The notes under the pieces are model-generated. The model was not told the DNA's origin. It did no database searches and saw only the letters and a program-made list of their open reading frames with translations. Of a stretch of 64,000 nucleotides of DNA, positions 3,342-53,638 are shown one piece after another. The position numbers and the translations under genes are program-made. The stretch covers positions 14,214-78,213 of the forward strand of contig CAZDDW010000004.1 in the NCBI GenBank assembly GCA_964504365.1, given 5' to 3'. Every line of letters begins with the position of its first letter. Position 1 is the stretch's first letter. Source of the DNA: an uncultured Gammaproteobacteria bacterium (GTDB taxonomy: Bacteria; Patescibacteriota; Patescibacteriia; UBA9934; CAZDDW01).

Positions 3342-4736
3342 ATGAAAACAAAAATAATAGGTATTGCTCTGCTCTTGGTTCTGCTGGCTGGCACAGGCCT
3401 GGGTTGCCGCGGCGGTAGCAGCGAAGCCCAGCAAGCAGCTTTAGAAAACGTCACTCTTTATTACTGGCGAGTGTTTGATGATGACGATGATCTTGACGGG
3501 ATTATCAGTGAATATAGAAAATTACATCCAAATGTATCTATCAGGGTGGTTAAAAAACGTTTTGAAGAATTTGAAGAAGAATTGGTTCAAGCCTTTGCCG
3601 AAGACCGTGGCCCGGACATGTTCTCGATTCACAACACCTGGATCGGCCAATATGAACCACTAATCACACCAATGCCTGATTCTGTAGAATTGGTATATCA
3701 TGAGGTCCAAGGAACACTAAAACAGGAGGTTGTTGCGGTTATTCGTGAAAACGATTTAATGAGCCTTGGGGAGTTAGACGATGATTTTGTTGAGGTTGTT
3801 TACGATGATGTGGTTCGTACATACAAAGCCAGCTCATCCAGCAAGAGTGAGAATAGAATCTGGGCTCTTCCATATTCAGTAGACACTTTGACCTTGTTCT
3901 ACAACCAAGACTTGCTTGACGCGGCTGGAATTGCTGAGCCACCATCAAACTGGGAAGATTTCCAGGAGCATGTTCAAAAAATAACCTTGTTGGATCTGGA
4001 GGGTGACATAGTTCAATCAGGAGCAGCCCTAGGCACCACGGAAAACGTTGAACGCGCCTTTGATATTGTTTCTTTGTTAATGATGCAGAACGGCACTCAA
4101 ATGACCACTGATTCAGGATCAGAGGCCACCTTTGCTGAAGCTCCGGAAGGGTCATCAAGCCGGGTTTCTCCAGCCATATCAGCAATCGAGTTCTACACTG
4201 ACTTTGCCAATCCAATAAAAGTTGTTTATTCGTGGAATGAAAATCAACCAAGTTCCTTTGATGCTTTTGCTAATGGTACTGCCGCCTTTTTCTTGGGCTA
4301 CTCTTACCATATCCCAATGTTGCGCGCCCAATCACCAAAACTTAATTTCGACACCGCACCAGTACCCCAACTATCACAAAGCAAAACTGTGAATTATGCC
4401 AACTACTGGGTTGAAGTGGTTTCAAAGAACTCCGAAGACTCAGATTATGCTTGGGACTTTATTAACTTCGCTGCCAGCGCAGAACAAGTTGATTCATACT
4501 TGAGTCGAGCAGACAAGCCAACCGCTCTGCGTGGTTTAATCAGCACCCAACTCGATGACTTAGACCTTTCTGTTTTTGCCAGCCAGGTCTTAACTGCTGA
4601 AAGTTGGTACCGTGGTGATGATGCTTCTGTGGTTGAAGAAGCAATTCTGGATTATGTTGATGACTACTTGTCTGGTATTGAGAGTCCGGAAAGAGAACTG
4701 GGCGTGGCCCAAAGTAAAGTTAATCAAACCTTATGA
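3342..4736 (+). CDS. extracellular solute-binding lipoprotein (ABC-transporter SBP family 1-like), orphan (no adjacent permease/ATPase)
   Basis: signal peptide with Cys (LLAGTGLGC), overall SBP-like length and motifs (YYWRVF..., HNTWIGQY...); no transporter partners in window. Confidence 0.55.
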   Translation: MKTKIIGIALLLVLLAGTGLGCRGGSSEAQQAALENVTLYYWRVFDDDDDLDGIISEYRKLHPNVSIRVVKKRFEEFEEELVQAFAEDRGPDMFSIHNTWIGQYEPLITPMPDSVELVYHEVQGTLKQEVVAVIRENDLMSLGELDDDFVEVVYDDVVRTYKASSSSKSENRIWALPYSVDTLTLFYNQDLLDAAGIAEPPSNWEDFQEHVQKITLLDLEGDIVQSGAALGTTENVERAFDIVSLLMMQNGTQMTTDSGSEATFAEAPEGSSSRVSPAISAIEFYTDFANPIKVVYSWNENQPSSFDAFANGTAAFFLGYSYHIPMLRAQSPKLNFDTAPVPQLSQSKTVNYANYWVEVVSKNSEDSDYAWDFINFAASAEQVDSYLSRADKPTALRGLISTQLDDLDLSVFASQVLTAESWYRGDDASVVEEAILDYVDDYLSGIESPERELGVAQSKVNQTL

Positions 4737-5365
4737 AAAAAGTACTACTAATTGTATTCTTGTTACTAACACCTTCTGTGGCCTTGGCAGCAGACCCTCG
4801 TTGTGCAAGTCTTGTTAGTTGGGAAGAAGCTGGGTTGCTTATGGCAAACATTTGTGAAGAGTGTTGGACCCAAGGCAATTGCCAGCTTGAAGACATTCTA
4901 CAGGTCTTTGCAAATGTTTCTATGTATATTCTAACTATTGTTGGAAGCTTGGCCTTGCTTTTATTTGTTATCGGTGGCTTTTATTGGCTAATCGCCTCTG
5001 GGTCCAGTGACAGAATCACAAAGGGTAAAAAATATATGACTGGGGCAACTGTTGGCTTATTAATTGTTTTCGTTGCATACCTTGGCGTACAAACACTGGC
5101 CACAGCTCTGCAAACCGGGGAGCTTGTAGGAACCTCTGATTTTGACGTTTGTAGTGGTGCTAATGATGGAGTGTCATGTGCCACGCGCAGTCAATGCTAC
5201 CAAGGTATGTGTGTTTCAATTTGTGGTGCCAATTCAGAAATGGCTAGTTCATGTTTTGATCCAGAAAATATTCCAACTGGTATAACCAGCTGCGGCTCCG
5301 GAGCAACCTCTTGTCCTAATGAAGAATATCAGTGCTGTGTTGTTTACACTCCGCCATCAACATAA
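4733..5365 (+). CDS. TrbC/VirB2-like type IV secretion pilin paralog 1 with C-terminal Cys-rich extension
   Basis: signal peptide, then hydrophobic helix-loop-helix with motif IGGFYWLIASGSS shared with the next four ORFs; extra about 75 aa C-terminal domain with many Cys. Confidence 0.6.
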   Translation: MKKVLLIVFLLLTPSVALAADPRCASLVSWEEAGLLMANICEECWTQGNCQLEDILQVFANVSMYILTIVGSLALLLFVIGGFYWLIASGSSDRITKGKKYMTGATVGLLIVFVAYLGVQTLATALQTGELVGTSDFDVCSGANDGVSCATRSQCYQGMCVSICGANSEMASSCFDPENIPTGITSCGSGATSCPNEEYQCCVVYTPPST

Positions 5366-5381
5366 TAGTAATACTTAGAAT

Positions 5382-5717
5382 ATGAAAATAACAAAATACA
5401 TTCTACCTACCGCATTCATGTTTTTCTTGGCAACGCCAACCTTGGCTGTGACACTGTTTGATCCTTTAGGCGGTGCTTCTATACCTGAATTAATTGGTCG
5501 AGTGATTAAGGCGGCGCTTGGACTAAGCGGATCAGTGGCTTTGCTAATGTTTATTTATGGCGGCTTTCGCTGGCTTACTTCAGGCGGAAACAGCAAGAGT
5601 ATCGACGCGGGAAAACAAACTATTACTTGGGCAATTCTTGGTCTAATTATTATTTTTGCCTCTTACCTTATCGTAGACCTTATTATCCGAGCCATTACTT
5701 CTGGAACCACAACTTAA
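5382..5717 (+). CDS. TrbC/VirB2-like pilin paralog 2
   Basis: signal peptide + LLMFIYGGFRWLTSGGNSKS loop + second TM helix; 111 aa. Confidence 0.65.
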   Translation: MKITKYILPTAFMFFLATPTLAVTLFDPLGGASIPELIGRVIKAALGLSGSVALLMFIYGGFRWLTSGGNSKSIDAGKQTITWAILGLIIIFASYLIVDLIIRAITSGTTT

Positions 5718-5796
5718 ATAAGGCTTGTGGATAGTGTTTAGGCTTAATTGTGATATACTTTACTTAAATTAATAAGTTAATTAAATCAATTTATCT

Positions 5797-6231
5797 ATGA
5801 TAAATAAACTAATCGCTTCTGTTGTCGGTCTATCTCTTTGTTTGAGCTTTGCTTTGCCAGCAGTTCCGGCTTTTGCTCAGGACCCAGATCCAGACGAAGA
5901 TGATGCGGACTACATTACTGCAACCGAGCTTTTACAGGCAGGAGATGAGGGGACTATTGGTCAGGTTGCTGGTCTTGGTGAAGAGGACCTAACAGCAGTT
6001 GTTGCCAGAATCATCCGTGCCATTCTCGGATTCCTGGGTATTGTGGCTGTGATAATTATCCTTTGGGGTGGATTCCTTTGGATGACTTCAGGGGGTAGCG
6101 ATGAAAAAGTGGGCAAGGCCCGCAAGTTCATCATTATGGGTATTATCGGTCTAGCTATTGTTCTTGCTGCTTACGCTATTGCTAGTTTCGTTATTACTGC
6201 TCTTGTTGGTGCGGTTACACCGACGGTTTAG
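5797..6231 (+). CDS. TrbC/VirB2-like pilin paralog 3
   Basis: signal peptide (AFA-QD), acidic spacer, IILWGGFLWMTSGGSDEK loop, second TM helix. Confidence 0.65.
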   Translation: MINKLIASVVGLSLCLSFALPAVPAFAQDPDPDEDDADYITATELLQAGDEGTIGQVAGLGEEDLTAVVARIIRAILGFLGIVAVIIILWGGFLWMTSGGSDEKVGKARKFIIMGIIGLAIVLAAYAIASFVITALVGAVTPTV

Positions 6232-6300
6232 TTATAGAAAAATGCCCCTGCCAATGCAGGGGCATAACGTGAGTTGATCTGCCAAAGGTCATTTCACGTT

Positions 6301-6678
6301 ATGCAAAGACTTATTTTAATCATAGCCGCTGCTGTATTGATTCTGTTTCCAGTTTTAACCATGGCTCAAATCGATCCTTCAGCAACTGGTTTGGTTGAAA
6401 CCGCCCAAGAGGCCGGATATGTTGAAGCAGACAATCCACCAACATTAACAGGATTCATTGCAACACTTGTCAACGTGGTTCTTGGTTTAACTGGTCTGGC
6501 TTTAGTGATTCTTTTGATCTATGGTGGAATTAGATGGATGACAGCCATGGGTAATGAAAAAACAGTAACTGCTGCAAAACAAATCATTACCAATAGTATT
6601 ATTGGAATAATCATTATCGTTGCTGCCTATGCTATTGCCAATTATATTATTGTCGCTCTGATTGAAGCAGCTACTTAA
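6301..6678 (+). CDS. TrbC/VirB2-like pilin paralog 4 (start taken at internal ATG 6301; ORF track begins 6274)
   Basis: MQRLILIIAAAVL signal peptide; LLIYGGIRWMTAMGNEK motif; second TM helix. Confidence 0.6.
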   Translation: MQRLILIIAAAVLILFPVLTMAQIDPSATGLVETAQEAGYVEADNPPTLTGFIATLVNVVLGLTGLALVILLIYGGIRWMTAMGNEKTVTAAKQIITNSIIGIIIIVAAYAIANYIIVALIEAAT

Positions 6679-6716
6679 ACTATAAATTAATAAATAGATA
6701 ATTAATTAATTCAACT

Positions 6717-7121
6717 ATGCGAAAACTAATCAAAGGCATCGCAGCCTTGGTTCCCCTCTACTACATCAAAGCCAGTTTGGTATTTGCTCAGGAGCAAGAT
6801 GTTGGTGAAGGATTGACCGGAGCTGAGGAACAACTCGGTGAAGTTGGAGGACAGGTTGAAGGAGGAGCTTTGGCTTCTCAGACCCTACCACAGCTGGTTG
6901 GTAACATTATCAACATTGCCCTGGGTATTCTTGGTATTATCCTGGTTATCCTGATTGTTTACGGAGGGATTCTCTGGATGATAGCTATGGGTGATGAGAA
7001 AAAGATTGACAAAGCCAAGGCTATTTTAACCAATGCTATTGTTGGTCTGGTAATCACAGTTGCTGCTTATGCCATTTCTAGCTACGTCATTTCTGCTTTG
7101 ATCACAGCTGCAACAGGCTAA
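6717..7121 (+). CDS. TrbC/VirB2-like pilin paralog 5
   Basis: signal peptide, LIVYGGILWMIAMGDEKK motif, second TM helix; near-identical architecture to paralog 4. Confidence 0.65.
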   Translation: MRKLIKGIAALVPLYYIKASLVFAQEQDVGEGLTGAEEQLGEVGGQVEGGALASQTLPQLVGNIINIALGILGIILVILIVYGGILWMIAMGDEKKIDKAKAILTNAIVGLVITVAAYAISSYVISALITAATG

Positions 7122-7183
7122 TCGATATTTCGGAAAAGAAAAGGGCGCACCGCGTGCAATCGCGATGCGCCTTTTGAGTTGCC

Positions 7184-7858
7184 TTAGCTCCCGATCAGGA
7201 CGGAGATGTCCATCGGGTCGTTGCCCTGGGGGAGGACCCTGACGAAGCGTCCAGAACGAAGCGTCCGGTACCGCGGAGGCTCATCCGGAGAGAGGCGCGG
7301 CAGCTCGACTAGTAGGTCGACGTAGATCGTGGCCGTGTAGCGCTTCGAACCGCGCTCGTAGGCGTCGTCGAAAACGACCGTGAACAGGCCCCCGTTGGGG
7401 ATCGGTGTCGGCAGGCCGACGTTGATGTCGTGCCCGAGATCGTTCCGGTAGACACCGGCCACACCAGCGTCCAGGAGGTGTCCGATACCCATCCCAACCG
7501 GCTTGCCGTAGTACACGGTGTAGCCGTAGGAGGGCGTGACCATGGCCAGCAGGGGCTGCTCGACCTGGGCCGGTTCACCTTCATGCAAACGGATGGTGAC
7601 CACCTCGTCGTCCGCACGCGGCGGTGCGCTCGGCTCGGCAACTCGCTCGAACTCCATCGTGGCCATGCGGGCCTCGGCGTCGACGTAGAGGTCGCTGTAG
7701 AACAGGATGGCGCACTTCTCGGCATTGCGCTTGCCAGCCAGGCCGTGTTCGGCACAGAAGGCGTCATCCGGCGTGGGAATGCCGGACATGTCCTGTGCTG
7801 TTGCGACCGGAGCCGCAATCAACACGATCAGTACGAAAATGATTCGAATCGTATCCAT
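7184..7858 (-). CDS. hypothetical secreted protein, GC-rich island 1
   Basis: long ORF in about 65% GC DNA; N-terminal signal peptide IIFVLIVLIAAPVATAQD; no recognisable domain. Confidence 0.5.
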   Translation of the reverse strand: MDTIRIIFVLIVLIAAPVATAQDMSGIPTPDDAFCAEHGLAGKRNAEKCAILFYSDLYVDAEARMATMEFERVAEPSAPPRADDEVVTIRLHEGEPAQVEQPLLAMVTPSYGYTVYYGKPVGMGIGHLLDAGVAGVYRNDLGHDINVGLPTPIPNGGLFTVVFDDAYERGSKRYTATIYVDLLVELPRLSPDEPPRYRTLRSGRFVRVLPQGNDPMDISVLIGS

Positions 7859-7860
7859 TT

Positions 7861-8502
7861 CTATTCCTCGAGCAGTTCTCCCAGGCTCCGCAGAGTCCGG
7901 GCGGTTTCGTGGTCTGTGGTTCGCAGTTCACCGTCTGTGTCCTGCAGCTCTTCGATCTCCCGATCGTGTGCATCGAGTCGCTGGAGCACTCCGCTGACGT
8001 CGGTCGGTTCGACCGACAGATGGACACTACCACCCTCTTCGACGTCAGGCGCCACATCCTCGCTGATGTAGATCCGGAAGATCTGCTCCCCAGGACTCAC
8101 ATCCTCACGCTCGACCCGCACTTCCTGGCCACCAAAGGCAGCACTGGTAGTGTAGGCGGCAGCGGATGGACCGGTCACACGTGTGCCCTGGGCGTTTCCG
8201 ACCATGGCACCATTGACCAGGACCTGACCGTTGACACCAACGATCGCTGACCCTTGGCTGAAGCTTGCATCCGAATTGACCGGATCCACATGACTGACGA
8301 ACTGGCAGTACTGCCACTCGCCGGTTTCCCGACAGAGCTCGGCCATCTGCGCGATGTTCGTTGCTGCCCCAGCGTCCTTGCCAACGAGCTGAGCCTCTTC
8401 CAAGACCAACTGACCTGTGTCATTGGCCCTGAGTTCCGCTCGGCTCAGGCAGCCTGTTACGGCGAGCACCAGGCTCACCAACATGATCAAATTCACTCTC
8501 AC
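7861..8502 (-). CDS. hypothetical lipoprotein, GC-rich island 1
   Basis: signal peptide with lipobox-like LAVTGC; 3-nt gap to downstream ORF (operon); no recognisable domain. Confidence 0.5.
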   Translation of the reverse strand: MRVNLIMLVSLVLAVTGCLSRAELRANDTGQLVLEEAQLVGKDAGAATNIAQMAELCRETGEWQYCQFVSHVDPVNSDASFSQGSAIVGVNGQVLVNGAMVGNAQGTRVTGPSAAAYTTSAAFGGQEVRVEREDVSPGEQIFRIYISEDVAPDVEEGGSVHLSVEPTDVSGVLQRLDAHDREIEELQDTDGELRTTDHETARTLRSLGELLEE

Positions 8503-8660
8503 TGTCTTTCCTCTCCCGACATAAAGTCGATTTGTCCGTAAGTCTGTTGGTTTAGTTCTGAAAAGTTCACTATTTTATTTCTTTTTTGACGCTTAAATAT
8601 AGCACGTTTTTGGCTTTTTGTCAACCAGAATAGGCTTATTTTATGTATATTTAAGCTTAG

Positions 8661-8732
8661 GGGGTAGAAAGTAGAAGGTTAATAGTAGAAAGAGTCTGAA
8701 TCTTTCTACCTTCTACTTTCTCCTTTCTACTA
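8661..8732. repeat. cluster of 8-mer GTAGAA(A/G)G repeats (3 forward, 3 inverted copies) forming a complex palindrome in the AT-rich spacer inside island 1
   Basis: ggtagaaagtagaagg...tagtagaaagag...tctttctaccttctactttctcctttctac. Confidence 0.6.
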
Positions 8733-8740
8733 AAGTAAAA

Positions 8741-8781
8741 GACGGCCACCAGATGGTGACCGCCGTTGAGCGTATACGAGT
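8741..8781 (-). terminator. intrinsic terminator after the 856-aa ORF
   Basis: minus-strand ACGGCGGTCACCAtcTGGTGGCCGT hairpin followed by CTTTTACTTT directly after stop. Confidence 0.5.
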
Positions 8782-11352
8782 CTATTCCAGACTGGCCTCG
8801 AGCCGCTCCAGATTGCTCCAGAACTGCTTGGCCTTGTCCGAACGCTCGGGCAAAGAACCCGTCTGTGTGGGGGAATCCGAGGCGACGGGGGTGTTGTCCT
8901 CGGTTTCGTTGTTGGTGGGATCGATCGTCTCGTCGACGTTCGCGTCCTTTTCCCTCTCTTCCAACCACTCTGCGTAGTCTTCCGAGGCCGTGTCGTAGGT
9001 CCAGTTGGCAGCCACGTAGATGTTGGCCAGGAGCGGGTAGAAAACCATGACGCAGACGAGGAGAATCAATGCAACTACACCAGCAACGGTTCCAGCGCCA
9101 CCTGCAACACCCTTTACCCAGGCATTGTCATCGTTGGAGAGCAGACCCCAGGCCAGACTGACCAAGGACCCCCCAAAGAAGAAACAAAGGACGATCAGGA
9201 CGATCAGACCAAGAACGAAGATGCTCCAATGGACATGAAGTCCTTTGAAGACTGCTCCGAACACGGACTTGGGCCCGTGCTCCTTGACCTTGGCTGTCAG
9301 CACCGCTGCACCAACATCATCGACCTCGAGATCCTTCGGGGTGCTCACCACCGGTGTACCGTTCCAGCGCACCTTCCACTTGCGACCCTGCTCGTCGACT
9401 GACAGCACTTTCGCGCCGCGTGGCAGACAAACCGTGCCCACACCTCGTGCGTCATCGCAGGGAACCAGGGTTCCTGCCGCCTGAGCCTTTGCTGCTGGCG
9501 ACTCACTGACCCAGACTCTGTCCTGGTAATCCGTCACCAGGAAAGCGCGCTCCTCGTCGCTCAGGCCGTACTGCGGCGTGTAGCCGAAGTTCGAAGCCGG
9601 AGTATTCGGAAGCATGGCGTAGATCGGAACCAGCGCAACCGCGCCACCGACCATGGCCACCCGAGCCATCACCGCGAAGAACCTGGCCGTTCCACGAGCC
9701 TGCTTGAAGGCGAAAATGGAACCATACCAGCTGTTCGGGTCTCGATCGACCCAACCAGAGGCAGCCACCGTGCTCGGCGCTGCGTAGAAGAAGAACAGGA
9801 AGGCGCTGGCCATTGCGACCATGCAGATGTGATCGTAGCCGAGAATCCAGTTATTGAACATCGCTGTCAGAATCAGCCCAGTCTCGACCAGGATGATCAA
9901 AGCAATGCCAATACCAGTGTTGCGAGCGTGTTTGCCTCGCTCCTGCTCCGACCCCAACTCACTGTCACCTGTCAGCTTTTCCAGCTGTACATAAGCCACC
10001 TGACCTAGCTTGGTGCTAACGTCAGCGACGTGAGCAGCCAGATCGATTCCGCCCTGGATCAAGTACCCCAAGGACCACGGAATTATGGCCATGAACAGAC
10101 CACCGAACGCGTTGGCGCCGATGGAGATCAGCGGATGAAGATCGGTTGCGAAGAGCAAGACGATCCCACTGACCCACATGGAAAAACCGATGACGAACAA
10201 GGCAATAAGGCCAAAGACCACGCTTCGACCGTCGCCTCGAGCGAACTGGACCAGCTTGTCGCCGGCACTGTCAGACGCACCTCGACTGAAATTGACCACC
10301 CGAGTCCAGATGTTCATCCGGTCGGCCACGTCTGCCACTCTTGCCGTGTTCAGCGACCCTTCAGGCTCGAGAAGACCACGGAAACTCTGGACCACCAGAC
10401 CGATGCGGTCAGGGTTGTCCACGCCGGTGTAGCGGCGCTGAATTCCGTCCTTGTCTCCATCTTTGCCAACCAAGTTCATTGTTGCCAAGTGGTCTTCGAT
10501 GGCCTTGATCACCTTTGCCGGCGCGGGCCTGTTCATGCCGTTGCGGATGAAGAAGGAGTCCTCATGACCACCATCATCACGCCACCTCAGCTCTTCTAGA
10601 ACCGCGTGCAACTTCGTGTGCGCATCTCTGGAGAGTTGCTCGAAGGCCGCCTTGACCTTCTTGCTCGGCTCAGGCAGGACACCCATGCAGTGAGGGCACG
10701 GCTGCAGGCTGAGCTGATTCATGGCCGTGTCGTAGTCGATGTAATCGACGGAGTGACCAAACTGCGGAGTATCCGGGATCTGAGGTGCGTTTCTGCCCCT
10801 CTTCGGTGCATTACGCTTCGACAGGAAGTCCATCACCTTGTTCGTGAGCAGACTCTCATCGATGTGCTCGTGCACGGCTGGGCAGGTGCAGGCAGCCTGA
10901 TCGTCTACGCGCACTGCGGTGTGTACGTAACGACCAAGATAGCCAAGCCCCTTGACCCGAGCCACCACCGGAACCAATCCAGTGAAGTCGTCAGGCAGGT
11001 CACCGATGTCCGAACCGACCAGCGCGTCGGCACCACCAGAAGAGATGGCCTCGAGCAGCCGGTTCAGCTTTTCCTCGGCCTGGATGCGCTCTTCCGCGCT
11101 AACGAACAGGTCGTCAGGCAACGGAAAGTCGATCGCGCTCCCAAGACCACGCACTCCCCAGCTAAGCCACTTCACGGCTGCCGGGTTTTTCTGCAGCTTC
11201 TCGAGCGCTTCCCCGAACATCGTGGAAGTCATTTTCTCGGAGCCGTCGCGAATTCCGTCCTCAAGGAAAGGCCAGATGGCCTGCCCAGCGAAACTAGTGA
11301 AGAATGTCACCAGCGGAGCAACCAGCCCCTTTACCATGTCGTTAGTAACCAT
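8782..11352 (-). CDS. large hypothetical polytopic membrane protein (856 aa), GC-rich island 1
   Basis: single long ORF in about 60-65% GC DNA; multiple predicted TM segments in the middle and C-terminal thirds, CxxC/CxHC pairs, acidic C-terminal tail; no recognisable family. Confidence 0.55.
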   Translation of the reverse strand: MVTNDMVKGLVAPLVTFFTSFAGQAIWPFLEDGIRDGSEKMTSTMFGEALEKLQKNPAAVKWLSWGVRGLGSAIDFPLPDDLFVSAEERIQAEEKLNRLLEAISSGGADALVGSDIGDLPDDFTGLVPVVARVKGLGYLGRYVHTAVRVDDQAACTCPAVHEHIDESLLTNKVMDFLSKRNAPKRGRNAPQIPDTPQFGHSVDYIDYDTAMNQLSLQPCPHCMGVLPEPSKKVKAAFEQLSRDAHTKLHAVLEELRWRDDGGHEDSFFIRNGMNRPAPAKVIKAIEDHLATMNLVGKDGDKDGIQRRYTGVDNPDRIGLVVQSFRGLLEPEGSLNTARVADVADRMNIWTRVVNFSRGASDSAGDKLVQFARGDGRSVVFGLIALFVIGFSMWVSGIVLLFATDLHPLISIGANAFGGLFMAIIPWSLGYLIQGGIDLAAHVADVSTKLGQVAYVQLEKLTGDSELGSEQERGKHARNTGIGIALIILVETGLILTAMFNNWILGYDHICMVAMASAFLFFFYAAPSTVAASGWVDRDPNSWYGSIFAFKQARGTARFFAVMARVAMVGGAVALVPIYAMLPNTPASNFGYTPQYGLSDEERAFLVTDYQDRVWVSESPAAKAQAAGTLVPCDDARGVGTVCLPRGAKVLSVDEQGRKWKVRWNGTPVVSTPKDLEVDDVGAAVLTAKVKEHGPKSVFGAVFKGLHVHWSIFVLGLIVLIVLCFFFGGSLVSLAWGLLSNDDNAWVKGVAGGAGTVAGVVALILLVCVMVFYPLLANIYVAANWTYDTASEDYAEWLEEREKDANVDETIDPTNNETEDNTPVASDSPTQTGSLPERSDKAKQFWSNLERLEASLE

Positions 11353-11503
11353 TTCGAACCTCCGTACGCACAGGCTTTACCTGCCGCACTTGTTTGTGTT
11401 GAATTTAACGTCCAATTTTCAGACGAGTTATATTGAAAAGATCCAGAGAAGTTTTACCTCCCCCGAATCCGAATTTGAACTAAAGTGCAGCAAAAGCTGC
11501 GGA

Positions 11504-11555
11504 TACGGAGAAGGGAGAAATATACCACTTTTGAGCCTTTTTGTCAACCTTGAGA
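11504..11555 (-). promoter_or_regulatory. sigma70-type promoter for the 856-aa ORF: TTGACA-N17-TATATT (minus strand), immediately after the upstream terminator T-tract
   Basis: minus strand reads ...cgcttattttttgtgtctcaaggTTGACAaaaaggctcaaaagtggTATATTtctc. Confidence 0.5.
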
Positions 11556-11600
11556 CACAAAAAATAAGCGAGGTATCTTAGCCTCGCTTATTCATAGTTC
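11556..11600 (-). terminator. intrinsic terminator after FAD-oxidoreductase gene
   Basis: minus-strand AAGCGAGGctaagataCCTCGCTT hairpin followed by ATTTTTTGTG. Confidence 0.55.
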
Positions 11601-11604
11601 AAGC

Positions 11605-12786
11605 TTATTTAAGCTTAGGTATCCCCCGCTTATTTTGAATTGCTTCGGTTAAAATCCTGCGGTCTTTATTCCGTCCCAAAATAGCCGCCCCAACAACCTT
11701 ATCGTTTCGAACAAAAATCTGAGTTAAAGCACCTTGTTCCACGCTTCCCCAAACAACGACCTCATCCGCGGCCCGCTTGTCCGTGTCTCCGATAAATGTA
11801 ATATCCAGTCCAAGCAAACTAATTGCATATGAAGACACTTGTTCATGCGCCGTTCGTTCACCTGCCAGTGTTTTAGCAACAGTCCGACCCTGCATCATGG
11901 CCCGACCCCAATTACCTGCACAATACTGACGGTCAACAATTGGATCAAAACTCTCAGCAATATCACCAACAGCAAATACGTCCGTAATATTGGTTTCCAA
12001 AAACTCATCTGTTTTAATTCCCTGATTGATTTCGACCCCTGAGTCTTGAACCCAAGATAGTTCTGATGAATTTCCAATTGCCACTCCAAGAATCGAACAG
12101 GGTAGATCACCCTTGGTTGTATCAACGGCTTCCAGATTTTGTTCACCACAAGTATTTGTCATTTCGGCCTCAGACAAAACTTGAACATTCTCTTTTTCAA
12201 GATGATCCTGAATTAACTTACCGGCCTGACGATTTAAAATCTTATTCCAAAAATGTTTACCACGAAAAGCAACAACAGTATCAATATTATAATTTTGAAA
12301 AACATTAATAAATTCGCAAGCAATAAACCCCCCACCATGAACAACCGCTTGGGTGCGCAACGCATCATGCTTCAGGCCGCTAATCACAGGCAGCATATGA
12401 TCAACATCGTCAATGGTCCAAAAGTAAACCACCCCTTTTGGTTCGCCAGACACTGTCCGCGGCTCAGTTCCACCAGCAATTACCAGCTTGTCGTACGGTA
12501 ACTCACGCGCGTTATCGAGTTCAATAAATTTATTTTTTGTATCCAATCGACCAGCTCTCTGTCCAAGTAATAATTCAATATTCTGATCCTGATACCATTT
12601 CTCAGATTTCAAAAAACACTTCTCCCGCTCGACCTTGCCGGTCGCGTAATGAGGAAGCAGTACCCGAGAATATAGTGGGTGATGTTCTTCAGAAATAATT
12701 GTAATATTGGCTTCGGAATCAAGCTTGTGCAGCTCTTCGGCACAGCTTGTGCCAGCAATCCCACCACCAACGATGATAACCTGCAT
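11605..12786 (-). CDS. FAD-dependent pyridine nucleotide-disulfide oxidoreductase (ferredoxin/rubredoxin-reductase or NADH-oxidase-like)
   Basis: N-terminal MQVIIVGGGIAGTSCAEE Rossmann FAD motif, second GG motif (VVHGGGFIACEF); start placed at ATG 12786 (1 nt after ferredoxin stop) rather than ORF-track 12819. Confidence 0.75.
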   Translation of the reverse strand: MQVIIVGGGIAGTSCAEELHKLDSEANITIISEEHHPLYSRVLLPHYATGKVEREKCFLKSEKWYQDQNIELLLGQRAGRLDTKNKFIELDNARELPYDKLVIAGGTEPRTVSGEPKGVVYFWTIDDVDHMLPVISGLKHDALRTQAVVHGGGFIACEFINVFQNYNIDTVVAFRGKHFWNKILNRQAGKLIQDHLEKENVQVLSEAEMTNTCGEQNLEAVDTTKGDLPCSILGVAIGNSSELSWVQDSGVEINQGIKTDEFLETNITDVFAVGDIAESFDPIVDRQYCAGNWGRAMMQGRTVAKTLAGERTAHEQVSSYAISLLGLDITFIGDTDKRAADEVVVWGSVEQGALTQIFVRNDKVVGAAILGRNKDRRILTEAIQNKRGIPKLK

Positions 12787-12787
12787 G

Positions 12788-13135
12788 TTATTTTGGATAG
12801 ATTTGATTTCCCTGGTCATCGTAAACTATCACGGCCAGAACAGGACATGACTCGGCAGCCAAGAGAACATCTGCCAATTCCGCGTCAGTCACTTCCATTT
12901 CCCTTTCGTAGATATTTTCGTTCTTCCCATGATCCAATACGTAAGCTTTATTTTCATCATTCATTTCAAAAGTCCGGGGGTCAACAATGGCACATGATCC
13001 AGCTCCGATACATAAATCTGGATCTACTTTTACTTTAATTTTAGGCATATTATTTGCTACGATAATTTTCAATGGCGTTGCGCAGGGCCTGATGTGCCAG
13101 AACTGAACAATGGACTTTGCGAGCCGGCAAACCAC
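12788..13135 (-). CDS. small [4Fe-4S]/[3Fe-4S] ferredoxin
   Basis: CIGAGSCA...ESCP cysteine motif typical of single-cluster ferredoxins; 115 aa; operon with oxidoreductase. Confidence 0.65.
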   Translation of the reverse strand: MVCRLAKSIVQFWHIRPCATPLKIIVANNMPKIKVKVDPDLCIGAGSCAIVDPRTFEMNDENKAYVLDHGKNENIYEREMEVTDAELADVLLAAESCPVLAVIVYDDQGNQIYPK

Positions 13136-20599: not shown

Positions 20600-21970
20600 C
20601 TATGCAGCGTACAAACGTTGTTTGATCAGTTCCAGATCATGTTGTAACTTTTCATCTTCAGTAAGAATGTTAGAAATTTTGTCGTAAGCATGCATGGCTG
20701 TTGTATGATCACGTCCACCAAGCTCCTGTCCGATCTGCGGATAAGAACTCTTCATTTCTTCACGCATGATATACATAATAATCTGTCGTGGAAAAGCCAG
20801 TCTTTTTTCTCGACTCTTGCTAAGCACCTCATCAATAGCAATGTCATAATATGCAGCCACGGTTTGTATCAGTTGTTTTGGGGTAACGTTCTTACGATTC
20901 CGTGATGGTTGGAAACTAGCCAACATTGGTTTTACTGTTTCAATTGTTGGATCAATATTTTTGAACTGATGGAAAGCAATGATTTTATTTAAGGCACCCT
21001 CAAGCTCTCGGATATTTGACTGAACAACCGTGGCCATGTGGTGCAGAATTTCTCTGTCTAATAAATAGCTTTTATCTCTACTTTTAGCCTCAAGAATAGC
21101 AATTCTTGTTTCAAAATCAGGGGTTCCAATGTCAGTCATCATGCCCCACTCAAAACGTGACAATAAACGATTCTCAAGTGCAGGAATAGCTTTTGGCGGA
21201 CGATCTGAGGAAAGAACAATTTGCTTGTTTTCTTGGTGCAGGGCATTAAAGGTATGAAAGAATTCTTCCTGTGTTCCCTCTTTTCCAGTAAGAAACTGAA
21301 TGTCATCAACTAAAAGAATGTCTACGTTTCGATAGACATCCTTAAATTCCTTGGCGTGTCCTGTGCGCACAGCGTGAATAAAATCATTAGTGAATTTTTC
21401 ACAGGTAACATACAAAACACGGGTATTTGGATTTTGTTTGACTCGCTGGTGTCCAATAGCTTGTAGTAGATGGGTTTTTCCAAGCCCTACCCCACCATAA
21501 ATAAAGAGAGGATTGTATACATCGCCTGGTTGAGCAGAAACAGCCTGGGCAGCAGCATGGGCCAATTCGTTTTGTTTTCCAACAACAAACGAACTAAAAA
21601 TGTATTTTGGATTTAAAGAGACATCTTCATTGTTTTTGGTTGATGTTCCTTCGTTATTATCAACAAAACTAACTGGTTCAAAGGTTTCTTCTTCACTTGG
21701 AATAACTTGCGGGGCAGATTGTCTAGTTTCAACACGATAGATTACGGCTTTGACAGGAGTGTTGGCTAGATTCTGTAAAGAAACAAGAATGTCTTTGTGA
21801 TATTTCTTTTCTAACCAGGCTTTGGTAAAAGTATTAGGGACACCGACGGCTATTTCACCACCGTCCAACGATACAATAAAAGTATTTTTAAACCAGGTAG
21901 TAAAATTTGCTTTGCTTAGCTTCAATTCAAGCTCTCCAAGAGCAGCTTGCCAAAGTTCGTCGGTGTTCAT
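20600..21970 (-). CDS. dnaA: chromosomal replication initiator protein DnaA
   Basis: Walker A GGVGLGKTHLL, AAA+ box, C-terminal DNA-binding domain ...ISNILTEDEKLQHDLELI; 456 aa. Confidence 0.95.
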   Translation of the reverse strand: MNTDELWQAALGELELKLSKANFTTWFKNTFIVSLDGGEIAVGVPNTFTKAWLEKKYHKDILVSLQNLANTPVKAVIYRVETRQSAPQVIPSEEETFEPVSFVDNNEGTSTKNNEDVSLNPKYIFSSFVVGKQNELAHAAAQAVSAQPGDVYNPLFIYGGVGLGKTHLLQAIGHQRVKQNPNTRVLYVTCEKFTNDFIHAVRTGHAKEFKDVYRNVDILLVDDIQFLTGKEGTQEEFFHTFNALHQENKQIVLSSDRPPKAIPALENRLLSRFEWGMMTDIGTPDFETRIAILEAKSRDKSYLLDREILHHMATVVQSNIRELEGALNKIIAFHQFKNIDPTIETVKPMLASFQPSRNRKNVTPKQLIQTVAAYYDIAIDEVLSKSREKRLAFPRQIIMYIMREEMKSSYPQIGQELGGRDHTTAMHAYDKISNILTEDEKLQHDLELIKQRLYAA

Positions 21971-25559: not shown

Positions 25560-26732
25560 TCAGGGCACGAGAGAAGTGGCCTGCAAAGGCGGTTCTTCCG
25601 GCGTGGCCTGGTTGTCTTCCGGTTTGCTTTCGGGGTCGCCGGGGTAGGTCGCTTCCTCAGGGGCTGGTCGAGAAGAGACCTCGACCTTCCAGAGGTAGTC
25701 ATCCAGTCGCAGAGACAGTGTCCCTGGATTCACAGATGCTGGGTCAGCACGAGTGACCCACTGGAACTTCTTGCCCAAGCTAAGGACTCGCTCCATGTTT
25801 TCTCGGCTGTGATCACGTCCGATCATGCCTGAGAAACGCGGCTGTCGAGACAGCAGGACTAGCAACGTGTCGATTCCGAGGGGTCGGGCCAGCGGGTGTC
25901 CGTCTCGTGTCCAGAAGGCAGGCCAGACCGCAGCCGCGGCCACGAAGAAGTTGACGATGATCTCCACCTGCTCTTCGATCGAGTACCCATGCAAGGAGCT
26001 GGTCTTGCCAACCGCTTGCTTGATGTACTGGAACAAAGACATCAGGTTGTGCCTGTCTCTGGGAAGGCGTCCACGAGTTGCCTGGTCGAAGAAGATCTTG
26101 TTGAGCAGAGGGGAACGCGGGTCCCGGTTCAGCTCAAGAGCGGCCAGGTAGGCTGCTTTCTCAGCGCGATTCTTGAAGCGGTCCACACGGTGAGCCTGAG
26201 CCAGACGAAGTCGTGGGTCAAGCTTCTTGCGCTTGCCCTGCTGGCCGAAGATGGCGATCCGTTGCTTTACCGGCAGGTTCACTGTGGTGGTCACTGGAAA
26301 GGACCAACGACCACGCTGTTCACCATCGAGCATCTCACAGGCAGCCAGTCGATGCTGGCCGTCGTCCACGAGCATGCAGCAGGCGTCCATCAGTTTTTCC
26401 GGATCGTCCTCAACCATGCCGGTCAGGGTGTGGCGCACCTCGTCGTATTCCCAACTGTGAACATCGTCGCCAGAACGCACATCTCCAAGGATGGAATCGA
26501 GCATGACCCCGCCCTCTTCCTTTTCCATGTGCAAGGCAATGCCGATGGCGTGATTGTTGGTCAGAGCCCTGTTCACACCTTCCGGGTGTTCGCCAAAGCG
26601 CAGGACAACAGCGATCTTCATCAAGAGCTCAGCTGAGAGCACGAAGGTGTAAAGGACGGTCTCCTTCTGCATGAACCGAGTAACGTTTGGAATTTCCACT
26701 TTTTGAAGGGCCATGTTTCCTCCCAACAGCAC
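25560..26732 (-). CDS. DGQHR-motif (DndB-like) protein, GC-rich island 2
   Basis: motif LVDDGQHRLAA (the DGQHR signature of DndB/DpdB-like ParB-fold proteins); about 58% GC DNA; 390 aa with acidic/Pro-rich C-terminal tail. Confidence 0.7.
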   Translation of the reverse strand: MLLGGNMALQKVEIPNVTRFMQKETVLYTFVLSAELLMKIAVVLRFGEHPEGVNRALTNNHAIGIALHMEKEEGGVMLDSILGDVRSGDDVHSWEYDEVRHTLTGMVEDDPEKLMDACCMLVDDGQHRLAACEMLDGEQRGRWSFPVTTTVNLPVKQRIAIFGQQGKRKKLDPRLRLAQAHRVDRFKNRAEKAAYLAALELNRDPRSPLLNKIFFDQATRGRLPRDRHNLMSLFQYIKQAVGKTSSLHGYSIEEQVEIIVNFFVAAAAVWPAFWTRDGHPLARPLGIDTLLVLLSRQPRFSGMIGRDHSRENMERVLSLGKKFQWVTRADPASVNPGTLSLRLDDYLWKVEVSSRPAPEEATYPGDPESKPEDNQATPEEPPLQATSLVP

Positions 26733-26790
26733 CGGGCATCACCAGCGTGCCCACACTGAAGAGAATTAACTTAACAGAATAAGCTTATCC

Positions 26791-26830
26791 TGTCAAGTAA
26801 CTGTATAAAAAAAGACCCGAGATTCGGGTC
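26791..26830 (-). terminator. terminator hairpin GACCCGA/TCGGGTC + T7, followed by TTGACA-N17-TAAGTT promoter for the DGQHR gene
   Basis: minus strand ccacttGACCCGAatcTCGGGTCtttttttatacagttacTTGACAggataagcttattctgtTAAGTT. Confidence 0.55.
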
Positions 26831-27203
26831 AAGTGGAATTATCCTGTTGATCAAGGAACTGACGAAGACTGGCTTCATCAGAATGGTCTTGACGTAGCCG
26901 GTCAAGGAAGGAGCCCAGAGTATCGCCTTGCTTGGCGGTCTGTTGGTAAACTTCCAGTATACGAGGCAGGTGACGCTGCAAATCTCCAAGCGGCAGAAGC
27001 TTCTTGGGCTCTGGTTTGCCAACATCCAAAGCTCTTCGCACTTTGGCTGCGAGCCGCTTTTTTATCTCAGGCAGGCGGTCAAGGATTTCCAAAGTACTTT
27101 TGTCGTCCTTGTCCAGGAATTGGCAAAAGGTTCCAGGCTTTCCCGCATCTACCCAGTCTTCGAAAGATTGTTCGATGCGGGGTATGATCAGGTCAGCTAA
27201 CAA
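26829..27203 (-). CDS. hypothetical protein (124 aa), island 2
   Basis: GC-rich ORF, 11 nt downstream of previous ORF stop; no recognisable domain. Confidence 0.4.
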   Translation of the reverse strand: MLADLIIPRIEQSFEDWVDAGKPGTFCQFLDKDDKSTLEILDRLPEIKKRLAAKVRRALDVGKPEPKKLLPLGDLQRHLPRILEVYQQTAKQGDTLGSFLDRLRQDHSDEASLRQFLDQQDNST

Positions 27204-27213
27204 ATTCCACCTC

Positions 27214-27822
27214 TCAGGAGTCCAGCCAGGCCCTGAGCTCGGCTTCGGTTGGGTGGTCTGTGGCTATACGACTGAGGTAATTGTCGAAGCTTTCGTCAGG
27301 AGTTGCCTCTTCGGTGAACCTTGTTGTGATTTGTCCCAGATACTGCTGAAGCACACTGCTTGGAAGTTGTTCTGCTGCTGCCGGCTTTTCCGCAGGCATA
27401 CCACTTGAAGCAACGGTTCCAGGGCTGAGAATACCATCGACCTGCAGCTCCAGGCCGCTACTGTCGGTTTCTTTGATTCGGCCGGTAAGACCATGCTCAT
27501 CGAAACCAAGCACCGTTGACACCCGACCTGCTCCACGTATCTCCTGGTCATCGAACTTGATCCCCTTGATCAAGACACAGCCGCCACTGACCCCTTGGTC
27601 AAGTGCAACAACCAAGAACAGGAACGAGTTTCGCGAACGAGCTACGTACACCTCACCAGGTCGCATTTCCAGCACTGGTTTGTAGATACCAGTGTCGTTA
27701 TCGCTTCGGCGATAAGGAACGGTCTGGGTAATGGTCACCATTCGCCCGTCAGGCAAGGAAAGGGTCAGTCCACGCAAGGTTGTTACCAACTCTTGTACGT
27801 CTTGGGTAAAGATCGAGGTCAT
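27214..27822 (-). CDS. hypothetical protein (202 aa), island 2
   Basis: GC-rich ORF with own TTGACA-N17-TATGGT promoter downstream of helicase terminator; no recognisable domain. Confidence 0.45.
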   Translation of the reverse strand: MTSIFTQDVQELVTTLRGLTLSLPDGRMVTITQTVPYRRSDNDTGIYKPVLEMRPGEVYVARSRNSFLFLVVALDQGVSGGCVLIKGIKFDDQEIRGAGRVSTVLGFDEHGLTGRIKETDSSGLELQVDGILSPGTVASSGMPAEKPAAAEQLPSSVLQQYLGQITTRFTEEATPDESFDNYLSRIATDHPTEAELRAWLDS

Positions 27823-27925
27823 GACTTCATCTCCTTTATGAAGGTAATTACCATATCAGACAACAAAGAGGCTGTCAAACCATATCGTTTGTGTTTACTT
27901 ATTAAAAAAGAGGCACTCAAGTGCC

Positions 27926-30900: not shown

Positions 30901-31147
30901 GGACAATCGCGTGAGCCAGGGCTTCGGGGAATGCTTCGAACCGTTCCCAGATAAAACGAAGTAAATCGTTTTTGTTGATTTGCTCAGCAAACAACGACGA
31001 CTTGTTTTCTACAACCTCAGCCAAACACTGATCAAGGTCCTTATCAGTCAGGTCACCACGTTGGTGGAGGAAGCGCAGGAATTCGTACTTCTTCTCGTTC
31101 TCTGGCATTTTGGCTAGCAGCGATACTATTTGTTGATGACTAAGCAT
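27926..31147 (-). CDS. SNF2-family helicase/ATPase fused to C-terminal class-I SAM-dependent methyltransferase domain, island 2
   Basis: helicase motifs IGDTGTYKT (I), VIWDECQYGKN (II), ALSVTPWEN (III), LLVSMKTCPDSINL and QGWLPWKQFLGRFWREG (V/VI); MTase motif I LIFDAGCGPL and IYGIDINP; start set at ATG 31147 (GGAGAGG SD) since the ORF-track GTG at 31240 lies inside the terminator/-35 element. Confidence 0.7.
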   Translation of the reverse strand: MLSHQQIVSLLAKMPENEKKYEFLRFLHQRGDLTDKDLDQCLAEVVENKSSLFAEQINKNDLLRFIWERFEAFPEALAHAIVRVCPEFFYGDVEWMTRLVLKLQADMKLRANLGVVTVRPLNTNRTDSGAKVVIDPEIIKGIPTEVLDLDVDCRIRELLYWFSRDVDLGHDFVREERAAANNDYERKVWQIAHERIEALLTTTYPDTIETINSRMFPALHVRWWLARSKDESRVLNIGDTGTYKTSYAALDVLQAGCQQTLVFCAPGARDNWENELKIYFPWARRPGVVHVIRGIRDVAFIPRNARFIVVGYSNLTRPEIVSALSKLAFDGVIWDECQYGKNVLGKSAAQRALACLTIIKGAEARLKKVLALSVTPWENSPVECAALATILRPDLFPDPERFVSSGVFASPRLLRAIFGTCILDIELQEVRDLPTINPQPWEDLFGPVPLEMNPDHAELYRFVQDHEPDLEQENGNGNGIGIDASAKVRHLLHAADMPHVLTGNTAYDWPDEMAERFSDWRLSTKLVWLKRQLDECLHNHKVVVATGVYVQGVTQPYKGDDDGVWVGKLLKEWYGDEAVLLLDGSVGVGSHARDSLIARWRTDPRARILLVSMKTCPDSINLSVLVRNDPTVQGVKVIAYAQGWLPWKQFLGRFWREGLTVPVEYLSLVLVGDDNIVDTADESRYELVKRKWEHLVRFRARVPPTEEEWNEYTTPNSTRLKRLTRSPTDHVNLIASDMRGAGEDGVIRRLSTEFGIRTNAEIFARSFVQVQDFGASGHIARFMTRSLTSGLIPAGILDRPELIFDAGCGPLTMERYLDQPIYGIDINPTIVDLGRTLSPHQGTNAEVGRLSQLPSDWTDRFRLTVSSLAIDWTNLEADQQEPERIRILRELVRVTESYGLIWLTFNRQALDETLYECWVSALRSEGCDVLPLSGLIVPKGEGHKTKPKFAFWSILFSLNGNKPRFTDHEAFRFTFELARNINVRNGKGKGPEPGNQSTVVYNDFEVVNPLASRSGTVLDNEAVKRTILREFQRWGARPDTGPLTPDQAALDLFAHDWRTLQKLASRGAIALTT

Positions 31148-31224
31148 CAAACCTCTCCGTTCCTTGTATTGCACAAGAAAATATTGAAAAGACCAAGGGA
31201 CCTTTTTAACAGATATAAGCCAAA

Positions 31225-31258
31225 TTGTCAATAAAAACACCCATCCAAGTGGATGGGT
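31225..31258 (-). terminator. intrinsic terminator after sigma-factor gene (ACCCATCC/GGATGGGT + GTTTTTATTGACAA)
   Basis: minus strand ctctaaACCCATCCacttGGATGGGTgtttttattgacaa. Confidence 0.65.
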
Positions 31259-39805: not shown

Positions 39806-39918
39806 TGCTCTTCTCCTTGAGCCATCTGAAGCAGTATCTCCTGGGAGGTACCAAGGTTCGGTCAGCGACCGGTTGTCTCCTGGGAGGCAACGTATCGATC
39901 TTGCCGGAAAATGTTAGA

Positions 39919-39959
39919 TTTGTCAATAAAAAGACCCGACAACAAGTGTCGGGCGAGGT
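39919..39959 (-). terminator. terminator/-35 cassette copy A (CCCGACA/TGTCGGG hairpin + TCTTTTTATTGACAA)
   Basis: ttgtcaataaaaagacccgacaacaagtgtcgggcgaggtt; 40/41 identical to 41166-41206. Confidence 0.7.
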
Positions 39960-39966
39960 TGTTCGA

Positions 39967-41034: not shown

Positions 41035-41165
41035 GATTTACCTCCAAGGCCACGCAGTCTCGCCACCAAGCACCCGTTCGGGCATCACCAACACGAACTA
41101 CCGTGCGGATCTAGCTTAGACTTGACTGAAATCATGGAGGGTTAGATTATCATCGTGCCCACGGC

Positions 41166-53603: not shown

Positions 53604-53638
53604 TTGGGTGGCAAAGATACCACTTTTTAGCCTAATTG

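Follow-up and report, generated by a model that had tools for sequence, protein, structure and literature searches.

A hyper-divergent, persistently GC-rich gene cassette for predicted envelope proteins at a conserved chromosomal site

We identify a sharply bounded, GC-rich block of three minus-strand genes, here called BIG, S1 and S2, at positions 7184–11352 of a 64-kb stretch of DNA, as delimited by the listing of its open reading frames (ORFs) and by composition profiles. Throughout, the window denotes the whole 64-kb stretch and the cassette denotes the block; the gene neighbours in the window are housekeeping genes and the DNA is chromosomal. We propose, with a probability of about 55%, that the block is a vertically inherited, clade-restricted and hyper-divergent envelope cassette whose GC-richness is maintained and not imported. 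The coding sequences of the cassette diverge several times faster than the neighbouring genes do. Atypical GC content is routinely read as a sign of horizontal transfer. Here such a block appears to be ancestral and syntenic, with a composition at equilibrium, across at least eight diverged genomes, and some other force would therefore have to hold specific coding sequences GC-rich. The cassette genes are the fastest-evolving in a conserved neighbourhood, which makes them candidate determinants of host specificity in an uncultivated epibiont lineage. The cassette genes and the genes on either side are as follows, with amino acids abbreviated as aa and GC at third codon positions as GC3.

BIG: 8782–11352, minus strand; polytopic membrane protein of 856 aa, GC3 0.706
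S1: 7861–8502, minus strand; predicted lipoprotein of 213 aa with a GTG start, GC3 0.673
S2: 7184–7858, minus strand; predicted secreted protein of 224 aa, GC3 0.80
Five VirB2-like pilin genes: 4733–7121, plus strand; PF18895, with normal GC3 (0.29–0.41)
Pyridine-nucleotide-disulphide oxidoreductase gene: 11605–12819, minus strand; the conserved upstream anchor gene of the cassette

Synteny, divergence and base composition

The three ORFs have a GC content of 0.58–0.63, against 0.38–0.49 in ordinary genes of the window. The excess centres on codon position 3, where GC reaches 0.80 in S2 (z = 7.7), 0.67 in S1 (z = 5.3) and 0.71 in BIG (z = 5.9) when measured against 44 ordinary window genes (mean 0.393, s.d. 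0.053, maximum 0.553). With z values of 5–8 relative to these 44 genes, the compositional anomaly described in an earlier note on this DNA is real. GC at codon positions 1 and 2 (GC1 and GC2) and amino-acid usage are shifted in the same direction, A, G, V and R being enriched and K, I and N depleted, and GC3 is uniform along BIG (0.62–0.84 per 50 codons). The spacer between BIG and S1 (8503–8781) has a GC content of 0.37. The GC1>GC2<GC3 pattern, the Shine–Dalgarno sequences (GGAGG at 11359–11363 for BIG, GGGAGAGG for the GTG start of S1 and GAGGA for S2) and the conservation of BIG along its full length against a homologue of 59% identity (P0001) together establish that the reading frames are genuine genes. 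Long plus-strand ORFs antisense to them, such as 7430–8071 and 10606–11436, are an expected by-product, because stop codons are depleted in GC-rich DNA.

The cassette occupies the same position in related genomes. A word-indexed search of 5.8 billion proteins returned a single homologue of BIG, P0001, and solely the query itself for S1 and for S2, while an exhaustive HMMER search of 1.84 billion representatives recovered eight cluster representatives of the BIG family. Seven of these eight (P0001, L008, L010, L011, L012, L013 and L020) lie, like BIG of the window, directly downstream of the NifS–NifU–Fer4–oxidoreductase genes. An eighth syntenic locus, L015, was found through its oxidoreductase gene, and there GC jumps to 0.60–0.66 about 250 bp past the oxidoreductase stop codon. 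In L008, L011 and L013, BIG is followed, as in the window, by two small ORFs with signal peptides, a convergent array of VirB2-like pilin genes, and SBP and NTP-transferase genes; the pilin array adjoins the cassette in all four genomes whose contigs cover that side. The most distant match to BIG, in L014 (E = 1.5e-4), is at another location and not near pilin genes.

Members of the BIG family were absent from phage, plasmid and viral-contig collections (tblastn and pattern searches) and from GTDB species genomes with the patterns tried, and scans of genome contigs and of metagenome contigs gave no match to BIG. With the oxidoreductase as query, the genome contigs held relatives of only 27–30% identity, and a profile scan of the metagenome contigs yielded L015 and L016. 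No integrase or transposase gene lies in or beside the block, and the oxidoreductase–cassette–pilin interval of the window contains no tRNA gene. As judged from its sequence relatives, BIG is a new, tiny, clade-restricted protein family. The earlier note had called all three products ORFans, that is, proteins without recognisable relatives, which holds for the family libraries but not strictly for BIG with its eight representatives. It had also allowed that the genes might turn out to be ordinary conserved proteins of the lineage with no compositional anomaly; lineage-conserved proteins were indeed found, but the anomaly persists. No account of such a cassette, nor of syntenic genes that stay GC-rich, was found for these bacteria in the searchable literature, an absence that is no proof of novelty.

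Identity to the window is 48–83% for the flanking proteins, 25–32% for BIG and near noise for S1 and S2. In the closest pair, L013 and L020, the oxidoreductases are 80–83% identical and the N-terminal domains of BIG 52% identical. S1 and S2 are recognisably homologous only inside the groups that the flanks define: those of L008 and L013 match at 1e-34 and 1e-45, and S2 of the window matches S2 of L011 at 2e-7 in a small database. The similarity of S1 and S2 thus follows the same grouping as the flanks, which vertical descent with very fast sequence evolution predicts and with which these alignments appear consistent.

The GC excess is present in every genome. Cassette GC3 is 0.57–0.85 (0.57–0.84 in BIG, 0.74–0.85 in S1/S2) against 0.24–0.64 in the flanks, a difference of +0.24 to +0.39, and the GC3 of BIG correlates with that of the flanks in the genome concerned (r = 0.90, n = 6). 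At four-fold degenerate sites of identical residues, bases match barely above chance in the flanks and in BIG alike (observed 0.21–0.46, expected 0.22–0.31), and synonymous sites are therefore saturated and fully turned over. An ancestral foreign composition would have decayed under such turnover, so the excess is either at equilibrium or renewed. Within BIG, GC at four-fold sites (GC4) is higher in variable than in conserved alignment columns (0.70 versus 0.61; pooled p = 0.005; same direction in six of six genomes), whereas NifS and the oxidoreductase have no such trend; the conserved columns of BIG still have GC4 values far above the flanks. The internal spacers (197–654 bp) stand at GC 0.35–0.44 in all genomes, and two intergenic stretches with no assigned function or structure, of 654 bp in L008 and 405 bp in L013, at 0.42–0.44.

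Transcription units and protein products

We propose that the cassette would be expressed as two transcription units, each with a near-consensus sigma-70 promoter of the lineage's own type. The first would comprise a promoter, a structured 5′ untranslated region (UTR), BIG and a terminator; the second would comprise a palindrome, a promoter, S1 and S2, and a bidirectional terminator. The elements concerned are these.

BIG promoter: 11519–11547, minus strand; sigma-70-type, TTGACA, 17 nt, TATATT, with TG before the −10 element; 11 of 12 positions match
BIG 5′ UTR: 11353–11512, minus strand; about 160 nt from the predicted transcription start
BIG intrinsic terminator: 8741–8764, minus strand; 10-bp stem with 7 GC pairs, then TTTTACTTTA
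Imperfect heptad palindrome: 8664–8730, no strand assigned; between the BIG terminator and the S1 promoter
S1–S2 promoter: 8596–8624, minus strand; sigma-70-type, TTGACA-17-TATATT with TG
Degenerate direct copy of 11518–11619: 8595–8661, no strand assigned; promoter plus 14 nt of the oxidoreductase end
Bidirectional terminator: 7144–7171, no strand assigned; GC-rich hairpin with T-runs on either side, common to the cassette and the convergent pilin array

On the minus strand, the spacer 8503–8781 carries in order the BIG terminator, the palindrome and the S1–S2 promoter. It is AT-rich and holds a terminator and a palindrome, as the earlier note had observed; it is not a host-like interruption of the block, but the cassette's own terminator and promoter region. 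The TTGTCAACC box singled out in that note is present at 8615–8626, although not as a separate box: TTTTTGTCAACC at these positions is the reverse complement of GGTTGACAAAAA, the −35 element of the minus-strand promoter 8624–8596. A nearly identical twin promoter (11547–11519) lies upstream of BIG. The 29-nt promoter type, TTGACAAAAwGGCTAAAATATGnTAtATT, precedes BIG in seven of seven genomes and S1 in all four genomes where this region is visible, L008, L011 and L013 among them. Allowing up to three mismatches, it occurs in the window at the BIG promoter, at 8596–8624 and at the promoter of a tRNA-Arg gene (53614–53642, minus strand), and nowhere else. The tRNA-Arg promoter, TTGACAATTAGGCTAAAAAGTGGTATCTT, has the same unusual spacer sequence (GGCTAAAA...TG) as both cassette promoters. 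Given its presence in all genomes and at the tRNA-Arg gene, this is the lineage's own strong promoter, and the conservation of its spacer sequence across genomes suggests a lineage-specific extended promoter consensus.

The segment 8595–8661 copies 11518–11619 degenerately (direct repeats of 84% and 80%) and without the terminator hairpin, and 14 nt of it repeat exactly the end of the oxidoreductase gene, with its last codons and stop (CCTAAGCTTAAATA, minus strand). The copy is absent from L011, the nearest relative with data, and is read here as a putative lineage-specific duplication or conversion between the two promoter regions. A reading of the two segments as paired att sites was rejected: each is an instance of the promoter standard in this lineage, and in relatives both promoters occur but the additional 14-nt match does not.

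The palindrome is 67 nt long overall, with arms at 8664–8696 and 8698–8730 (33 nt, 79% complementary) and an inner repeat of 14 nt that is 100% complementary. It is composed of convergent G[TG]AGAA[AG] heptads, for which the window has six matches against 1.46 expected, four of the six inside the palindrome. This heptad-repeat element is unique in the window and folds as RNA at −50.4 kcal/mol (z = −6.7). It may serve as an array of sites for a regulator or act as a further hairpin terminator. L008, L011 and L013 do not conserve it and have other short repeats at the same position. In L013, ATCCGTAGATCCGT occurs twice at 7786–7818, upstream of the S1 promoter, where the window has its GTAGAAA heptad palindrome; in L008, GGAT-N7-ATCC hairpins upstream of the S1 promoter (9840–9900) take the palindrome's place. 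These repeats could be fast-changing operator sites.

The BIG 5′ UTR is 120–215 nt long across genomes. In the window it contains a small hairpin (11487–11500) and, proximal to the Shine–Dalgarno sequence, a hairpin GUGCG...CGUAC (11364–11389, minus strand). In individual predicted folds, a hairpin GUGCG...CGCAC ends 1–3 nt ahead of the BIG Shine–Dalgarno sequence in seven of seven genomes (the window, L008, L010, L011, L012, L013 and L015); the inner stem and the loop differ between genomes, and close to the 5′ end of the UTR there is another small hairpin. The conserved hairpin could be an mRNA-stabilising or regulatory leader. A different structure, a conserved long stem (GGACGGTTAAAGCACTGA ... 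TCAGTGCTTTTATCGTCC), is found in the 195–232-nt leader from the S1 promoter to the S1 start in L008 (10243–10320) and L013 (7875–7950), and is absent from the window and L011. Rfam gave no match for the spacer, the UTRs or the L008 and L013 leaders, this long-stem structure included. The ATG of S2 lies 2 nt past the stop codon of S1, with GAGGA 9 nt upstream of the S2 start, a spacing which suggests that S1 and S2 may be translationally coupled.

All three products bear signals for export or membrane insertion and none has a recognisable domain, in agreement with the earlier note: S2 has a signal peptide, S1 a lipobox (VTGC) and BIG seven hydrophobic segments. BIG, S1 and S2 have no match in Pfam, PHROGs, NCBIfam or PADLOC, PDB sequence and profile searches returned nothing below E = 0.5, and nine members of the BIG family have no match in Pfam. 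The hydrophobic 19-mers of BIG (n = 7) are at residues 382–400, 408–426, 481–499, 509–527, 559–577, 713–731 and 756–774, giving a layout of a ~370-aa N-terminal domain, five transmembrane (TM) segments, a beta-rich loop of ~130 aa with two cysteines, two further TM segments, and an acidic charged tail that ends in a short helix. This TM layout is kept across the family. The positive-inside rule applied to loop lysines and arginines would place the ~370-aa N-terminal domain in the cytoplasm and the ~130-aa beta-rich loop outside it. The N-terminal domain contains a cysteine cluster, C-x-C...CPHC, whose cysteines are kept or lost jointly across the family, which suggests a dispensable metal site.

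S2 begins MDTIRIIFVLIVLIAAPVATA followed by QD; its signal peptide ends in PVATA before that QD, with an AxA-type cleavage site as judged by inspection. By the same measure all four S2 counterparts have a signal peptide, and a cysteine pair right after it is conserved in all S2 proteins, so that S2 is probably a secreted protein with a disulphide. S1 begins MRVNLIMLVSLVLAVTGC, in which V-T-G-C fits the lipobox pattern [LVI][ASTVI][GAS]C; in MRVNLIMLVSLVLA-VTG-C the lipobox follows a positively charged n-region and then a hydrophobic h-region, and falls inside the first ~25 residues. Cleavage is predicted between MRVNLIMLVSLVLAVTG and the C, and the C-terminus is charged and coiled-coil-like. 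Its counterparts in L008, L011 and L013 each combine an export signal with a coiled-coil-like C-terminal tail, the signal being LIS-S-C in L011 and an ordinary signal peptide in L008 and L013. S1 is accordingly predicted to be a lipoprotein or a secreted coiled-coil protein. We propose that the extracytoplasmic loop and C-terminal helix of BIG, the S1 coiled coil and S2 would form a cell-surface complex that faces the host or the environment.

Competing explanations for the cassette

The composition of the block, taken by itself, would fit three genes recently imported and not yet ameliorated from a GC-rich donor, such as an actinobacterial host of the epibiont. Their GC3 is 5–8 s.d. above that of the genome's own genes, their GC1, GC2 and amino-acid usage resemble those of a genome of 60–65% GC, they are ORFans in the family libraries, and imperfect direct repeats (8595–8661 and 11518–11619) flank BIG. 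Like acquired genomic islands, the cassette is atypical at all codon positions, ORFan in content and bounded by sharp compositional changes. Unlike them, it is not sporadic, has no mobility genes, no adjoining tRNA gene and no donor homologues, and keeps its composition across saturated divergence. At least eight related genomes, with flanking proteins just 48–83% identical to those of the window, have it at this site, and among the 1.84e9 representatives no homologue stands outside this context save that of L014. The apparent repeats are the lineage's promoter type, found at a tRNA gene too. Because of the synteny and saturation results a recent import is effectively refuted, and we regard it as scarcely credible. 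The earlier note had read the block as a surface or interaction island beside a pilin array; five VirB2-like pilin genes do adjoin it, but the synteny, the saturation and the lack of mobility genes argue against an island.

Foreign sequence could also have entered repeatedly. The site might be a hypervariable locus at which diverged alleles from an unsampled GC-rich pool are swapped through the conserved flanks and then partly ameliorated. Its conserved flanks do enclose extremely divergent contents, the N-terminal domain of the window's BIG is closest to L008 where the flanks are closest to L011 and L010, and a gene-conversion-like duplicate links the two promoter regions; Saccharibacteria, moreover, are naturally competent (PMC10633639). 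Extra GC-rich ORFans occur at differing sites as well. Positions 1568–2131 of L012 encode one of 187 aa (GC3 0.72), between dnaN-side genes and a PBP gene, with no counterpart at the equivalent site of the window; GC-rich ORFans therefore also occur sporadically, and an unsampled pool of GC-rich genes stays in play. Against recurrent replacement, the family is confined to this site in this clade apart from the marginal L014 match; the flank groupings recur in S1, in S2 and in the TM and C-terminal regions of BIG; and the GC3 of BIG correlates with the recipient background (r = 0.90). The spacer and promoter are conserved and have host composition, so that a swap would have to hit coding sequences only, and seven contigs from different samples carry one identical allele. 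We consider this history unlikely.

O-antigen and capsule loci, as in Enterobacteria and Streptococcus, occupy a fixed site and have divergent surface contents; their AT content exceeds that of the genome, their products belong to recognisable enzyme families, and within a species they exist as many alleles exchanged by recombination. The cassette resembles them in its fixed site among conserved genes, in contents that are far more divergent than those genes and destined for the surface, and in its atypical composition. It differs in being GC-rich, in encoding three family-less proteins that are homologous across genomes, and in having one allele in seven contigs. We regard it as an unusual variant of the hypervariable-surface-locus theme, GC-rich and compositionally stable. 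The cassette was also considered, and rejected, as the target of a diversity-generating retroelement: there is no repeat longer than 35 nt in 7000–11700 and no reverse transcriptase domain among the scanned window ORFs, and the GC excess is uniform over whole genes.

The excess might instead arise from relaxed selection, if mutation in this clade (or mutation and repair together) ran GC-ward, codon selection kept ordinary genes AT-rich, and weakly constrained ORFans drifted towards GC. It does coincide with the fastest, family-less genes, including 38702–42244 and 52069–53316 of the window and 1568–2131 of L012; the four-fold sites of BIG are more GC-rich at variable columns, a trend lacking in the flanks; and all codon positions are shifted in the ratio typical of directional mutation pressure. 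Intergenic DNA should then be GC-rich too, yet it stands at 0.42–0.44, the 654 bp of L008 and 405 bp of L013 included, and the conserved columns of BIG are themselves far above the flanks in GC4. Strong promoters, Shine–Dalgarno sequences and intact long ORFs argue that the genes are not decaying. As a matter of general knowledge, bacterial mutation is almost universally AT-biased, which Hershberg and Petrov in 2010 and Hildebrand et al. in 2010 are said to have reported. Drift of this kind is in our judgement decidedly improbable.

A further account concerns function. BIG could be a highly diverged VirB6/PrgH-like platform, with S1 and S2 as VirB5/VirB8-like or adhesin-like extracellular parts, all accessory to the pilus or type IV secretion system (T4SS) of the neighbouring genes. 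All three pilin genes scanned of the window's five match PF18895, precomputed PF18895 matches cover all five pilins in L001–L003 (identical loci) and in L008, and pilin arrays are present in L011 and L013 too. The window's array is ~13 kb from dnaA (20600–21970). Tandem arrays of VirB2-like pilins near dnaA are known in Patescibacteria (PMC12102498), and in a cultivated Saccharibacterium such pilins are essential members of the T4SS gene cluster (PMC10633639). In some classes of Patescibacteria VirB6 is reportedly scarce or undetectable, "suggesting extreme sequence divergence", and in Southlakia pilin arrays are reported to be essential (PMC12102498, PMC10633639). The cassette keeps its place beside the five-gene PF18895 array in four of four genomes with that side on the contig, and BIG shares with VirB6 proteins, by a hydropathy rule, its polytopic build and a large extracytoplasmic loop. 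Its genes thus resemble VirB6, TrbL or PrgH and the Patescibacteria pilin arrays in topology and in standing beside a VirB2-like array near dnaA; they differ in that BIG lacks sequence or profile similarity to these proteins, is separately transcribed and has no VirB4 nearby.

In nine members of the BIG family, no TrbL/VirB6, PrgH or other T4SS profile of Pfam matched at E up to 1, and no VirB4- or VirD4-like protein was found among the scanned window ORFs, which include all of at least 400 aa. A ~370-aa N-terminal cysteine-cluster domain such as that of BIG is not known in VirB6. Transcription of the cassette and of the array starts at separate promoters and converges on a shared terminator, the distant homologue in L014 is not near pilins, and the whole region of ~20 kb is syntenic, which makes adjacency weak evidence. 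A role as pilus accessory is accordingly improbable.

We return to the proposal that the cassette is inherited vertically and kept GC-rich. Under it, diversifying or host-specific selection would drive the cassette sequences apart fast, and a gene-specific GC-ward force would accompany this divergence in every lineage. Candidate forces are GC-biased gene conversion arising from frequent recombination, a targeted mutational process, and mRNA or codon selection. Biased conversion or targeted mutation would account for the shift at all codon positions and for the link between rate and GC, but should not spare the spacer; codon or mRNA selection would account for the restriction to coding sequence, but not for the shift in amino acids. 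Lassalle et al. in 2015 reportedly found signatures of GC-biased gene conversion in recombining bacterial genes, with an effect of a few GC3 points. The cassette is similar in having higher GC3 at a locus expected to recombine or evolve fast and a slightly larger excess at variable columns; it differs in that its offset is 24–39 points, affects coding sequence only and skips the internal spacer (197–654 bp).

More tentatively, and with the odds against it, we raise the possibility of a gene-specific GC-ward process, either targeted hypermutation or diversification or a strong form of biased conversion, that acts on fast, mostly exported ORFans and holds their GC3 25–40 points above the genome over genus-level or deeper divergence while skipping intergenic DNA. 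Such a process would represent a novel form of locus-targeted sequence diversification, or else the strongest bacterial compositional "hot spot" that horizontal gene transfer does not explain. Were the force biased conversion or targeted mutagenesis tied to the diversification of surface proteins, it would represent a new mechanism, and a warning for island prediction.

Several observations weigh against the reading we prefer. Seven contigs from different samples share the window allele at 99.9–100% identity, L001–L004 being identical to the window, so there is no measurable within-species diversity and diversifying selection is a candidate explanation; with dS saturated, the ratio of nonsynonymous to synonymous divergence (dN/dS) has no computable value. 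Residues 1–130 of BIG (window ~10960–11352) are 44% identical to L008 and 25–26% to L010 and L011, although by their flanks L010 and L011 are closer to the window than L008 is, and the grouping of the TM and C-terminal regions of BIG agrees with that of the flanks. This discordance could reflect recombination or domain exchange, or rate heterogeneity. Biased gene conversion, as a regional process, should enrich the spacer too, and the spacer is not enriched; the scattered GC-rich ORFans of these genomes leave room for a pool of GC-rich genes not yet sampled. Export signals and membrane topology were assigned by rule of thumb only, from hydropathy and inspection. The earlier note had suggested structure prediction with Foldseek, and for BIG this gave no fold match: AlphaFold2 models reached a mean confidence (pLDDT) of 35 with a 2-sequence alignment and 58.5 with a 9-sequence alignment, and the best Foldseek result against PDB and BFVD had E = 0.017, with TM-scores of ~0.1 and no credible fold. 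Weak tape-measure and GPCR matches were rejected as helical-bundle noise. Finally, the organism appears to be Patescibacteria-like on the strength of its PF18895 arrays and gene content, and not of a marker phylogeny.

Other GC-rich genes in the window and related loci

The window holds further blocks of GC-rich ORFans, and such blocks make up about one-fifth of it. Three genes at 38702–42244 encode proteins of 367, 355 and 345 aa (GC3 0.62–0.70). A gene at 52069–53316 encodes one of 415 aa (GC3 0.84), adjoins tRNA-Arg (53527–53603) and has its own TTGACA promoter near 53481–53492. The proteins of both blocks have no match in Pfam, PHROGs, NCBIfam or PADLOC, and an all-against-all phmmer comparison found no homology between BIG, S1 or S2 and the proteins of the other GC-rich blocks. 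This genome may contain GC-rich ORFans as a general class.

The region 25560–31240 is moderately GC-rich (GC3 0.50–0.68). It encodes a DGQHR/DndB-like protein (TIGR03187, 2e-21) and a protein of 1104 aa with weak Snf2/DpdE-like and methyltransferase matches, and is probably a DNA-modification or defence island, different in nature from the cassette. In L010, and in L010 only, an rve-family integrase/transposase gene (4471–5622) lies ~1 kb upstream of NifS; this is probably an insertion sequence element and has no association with the cassette.

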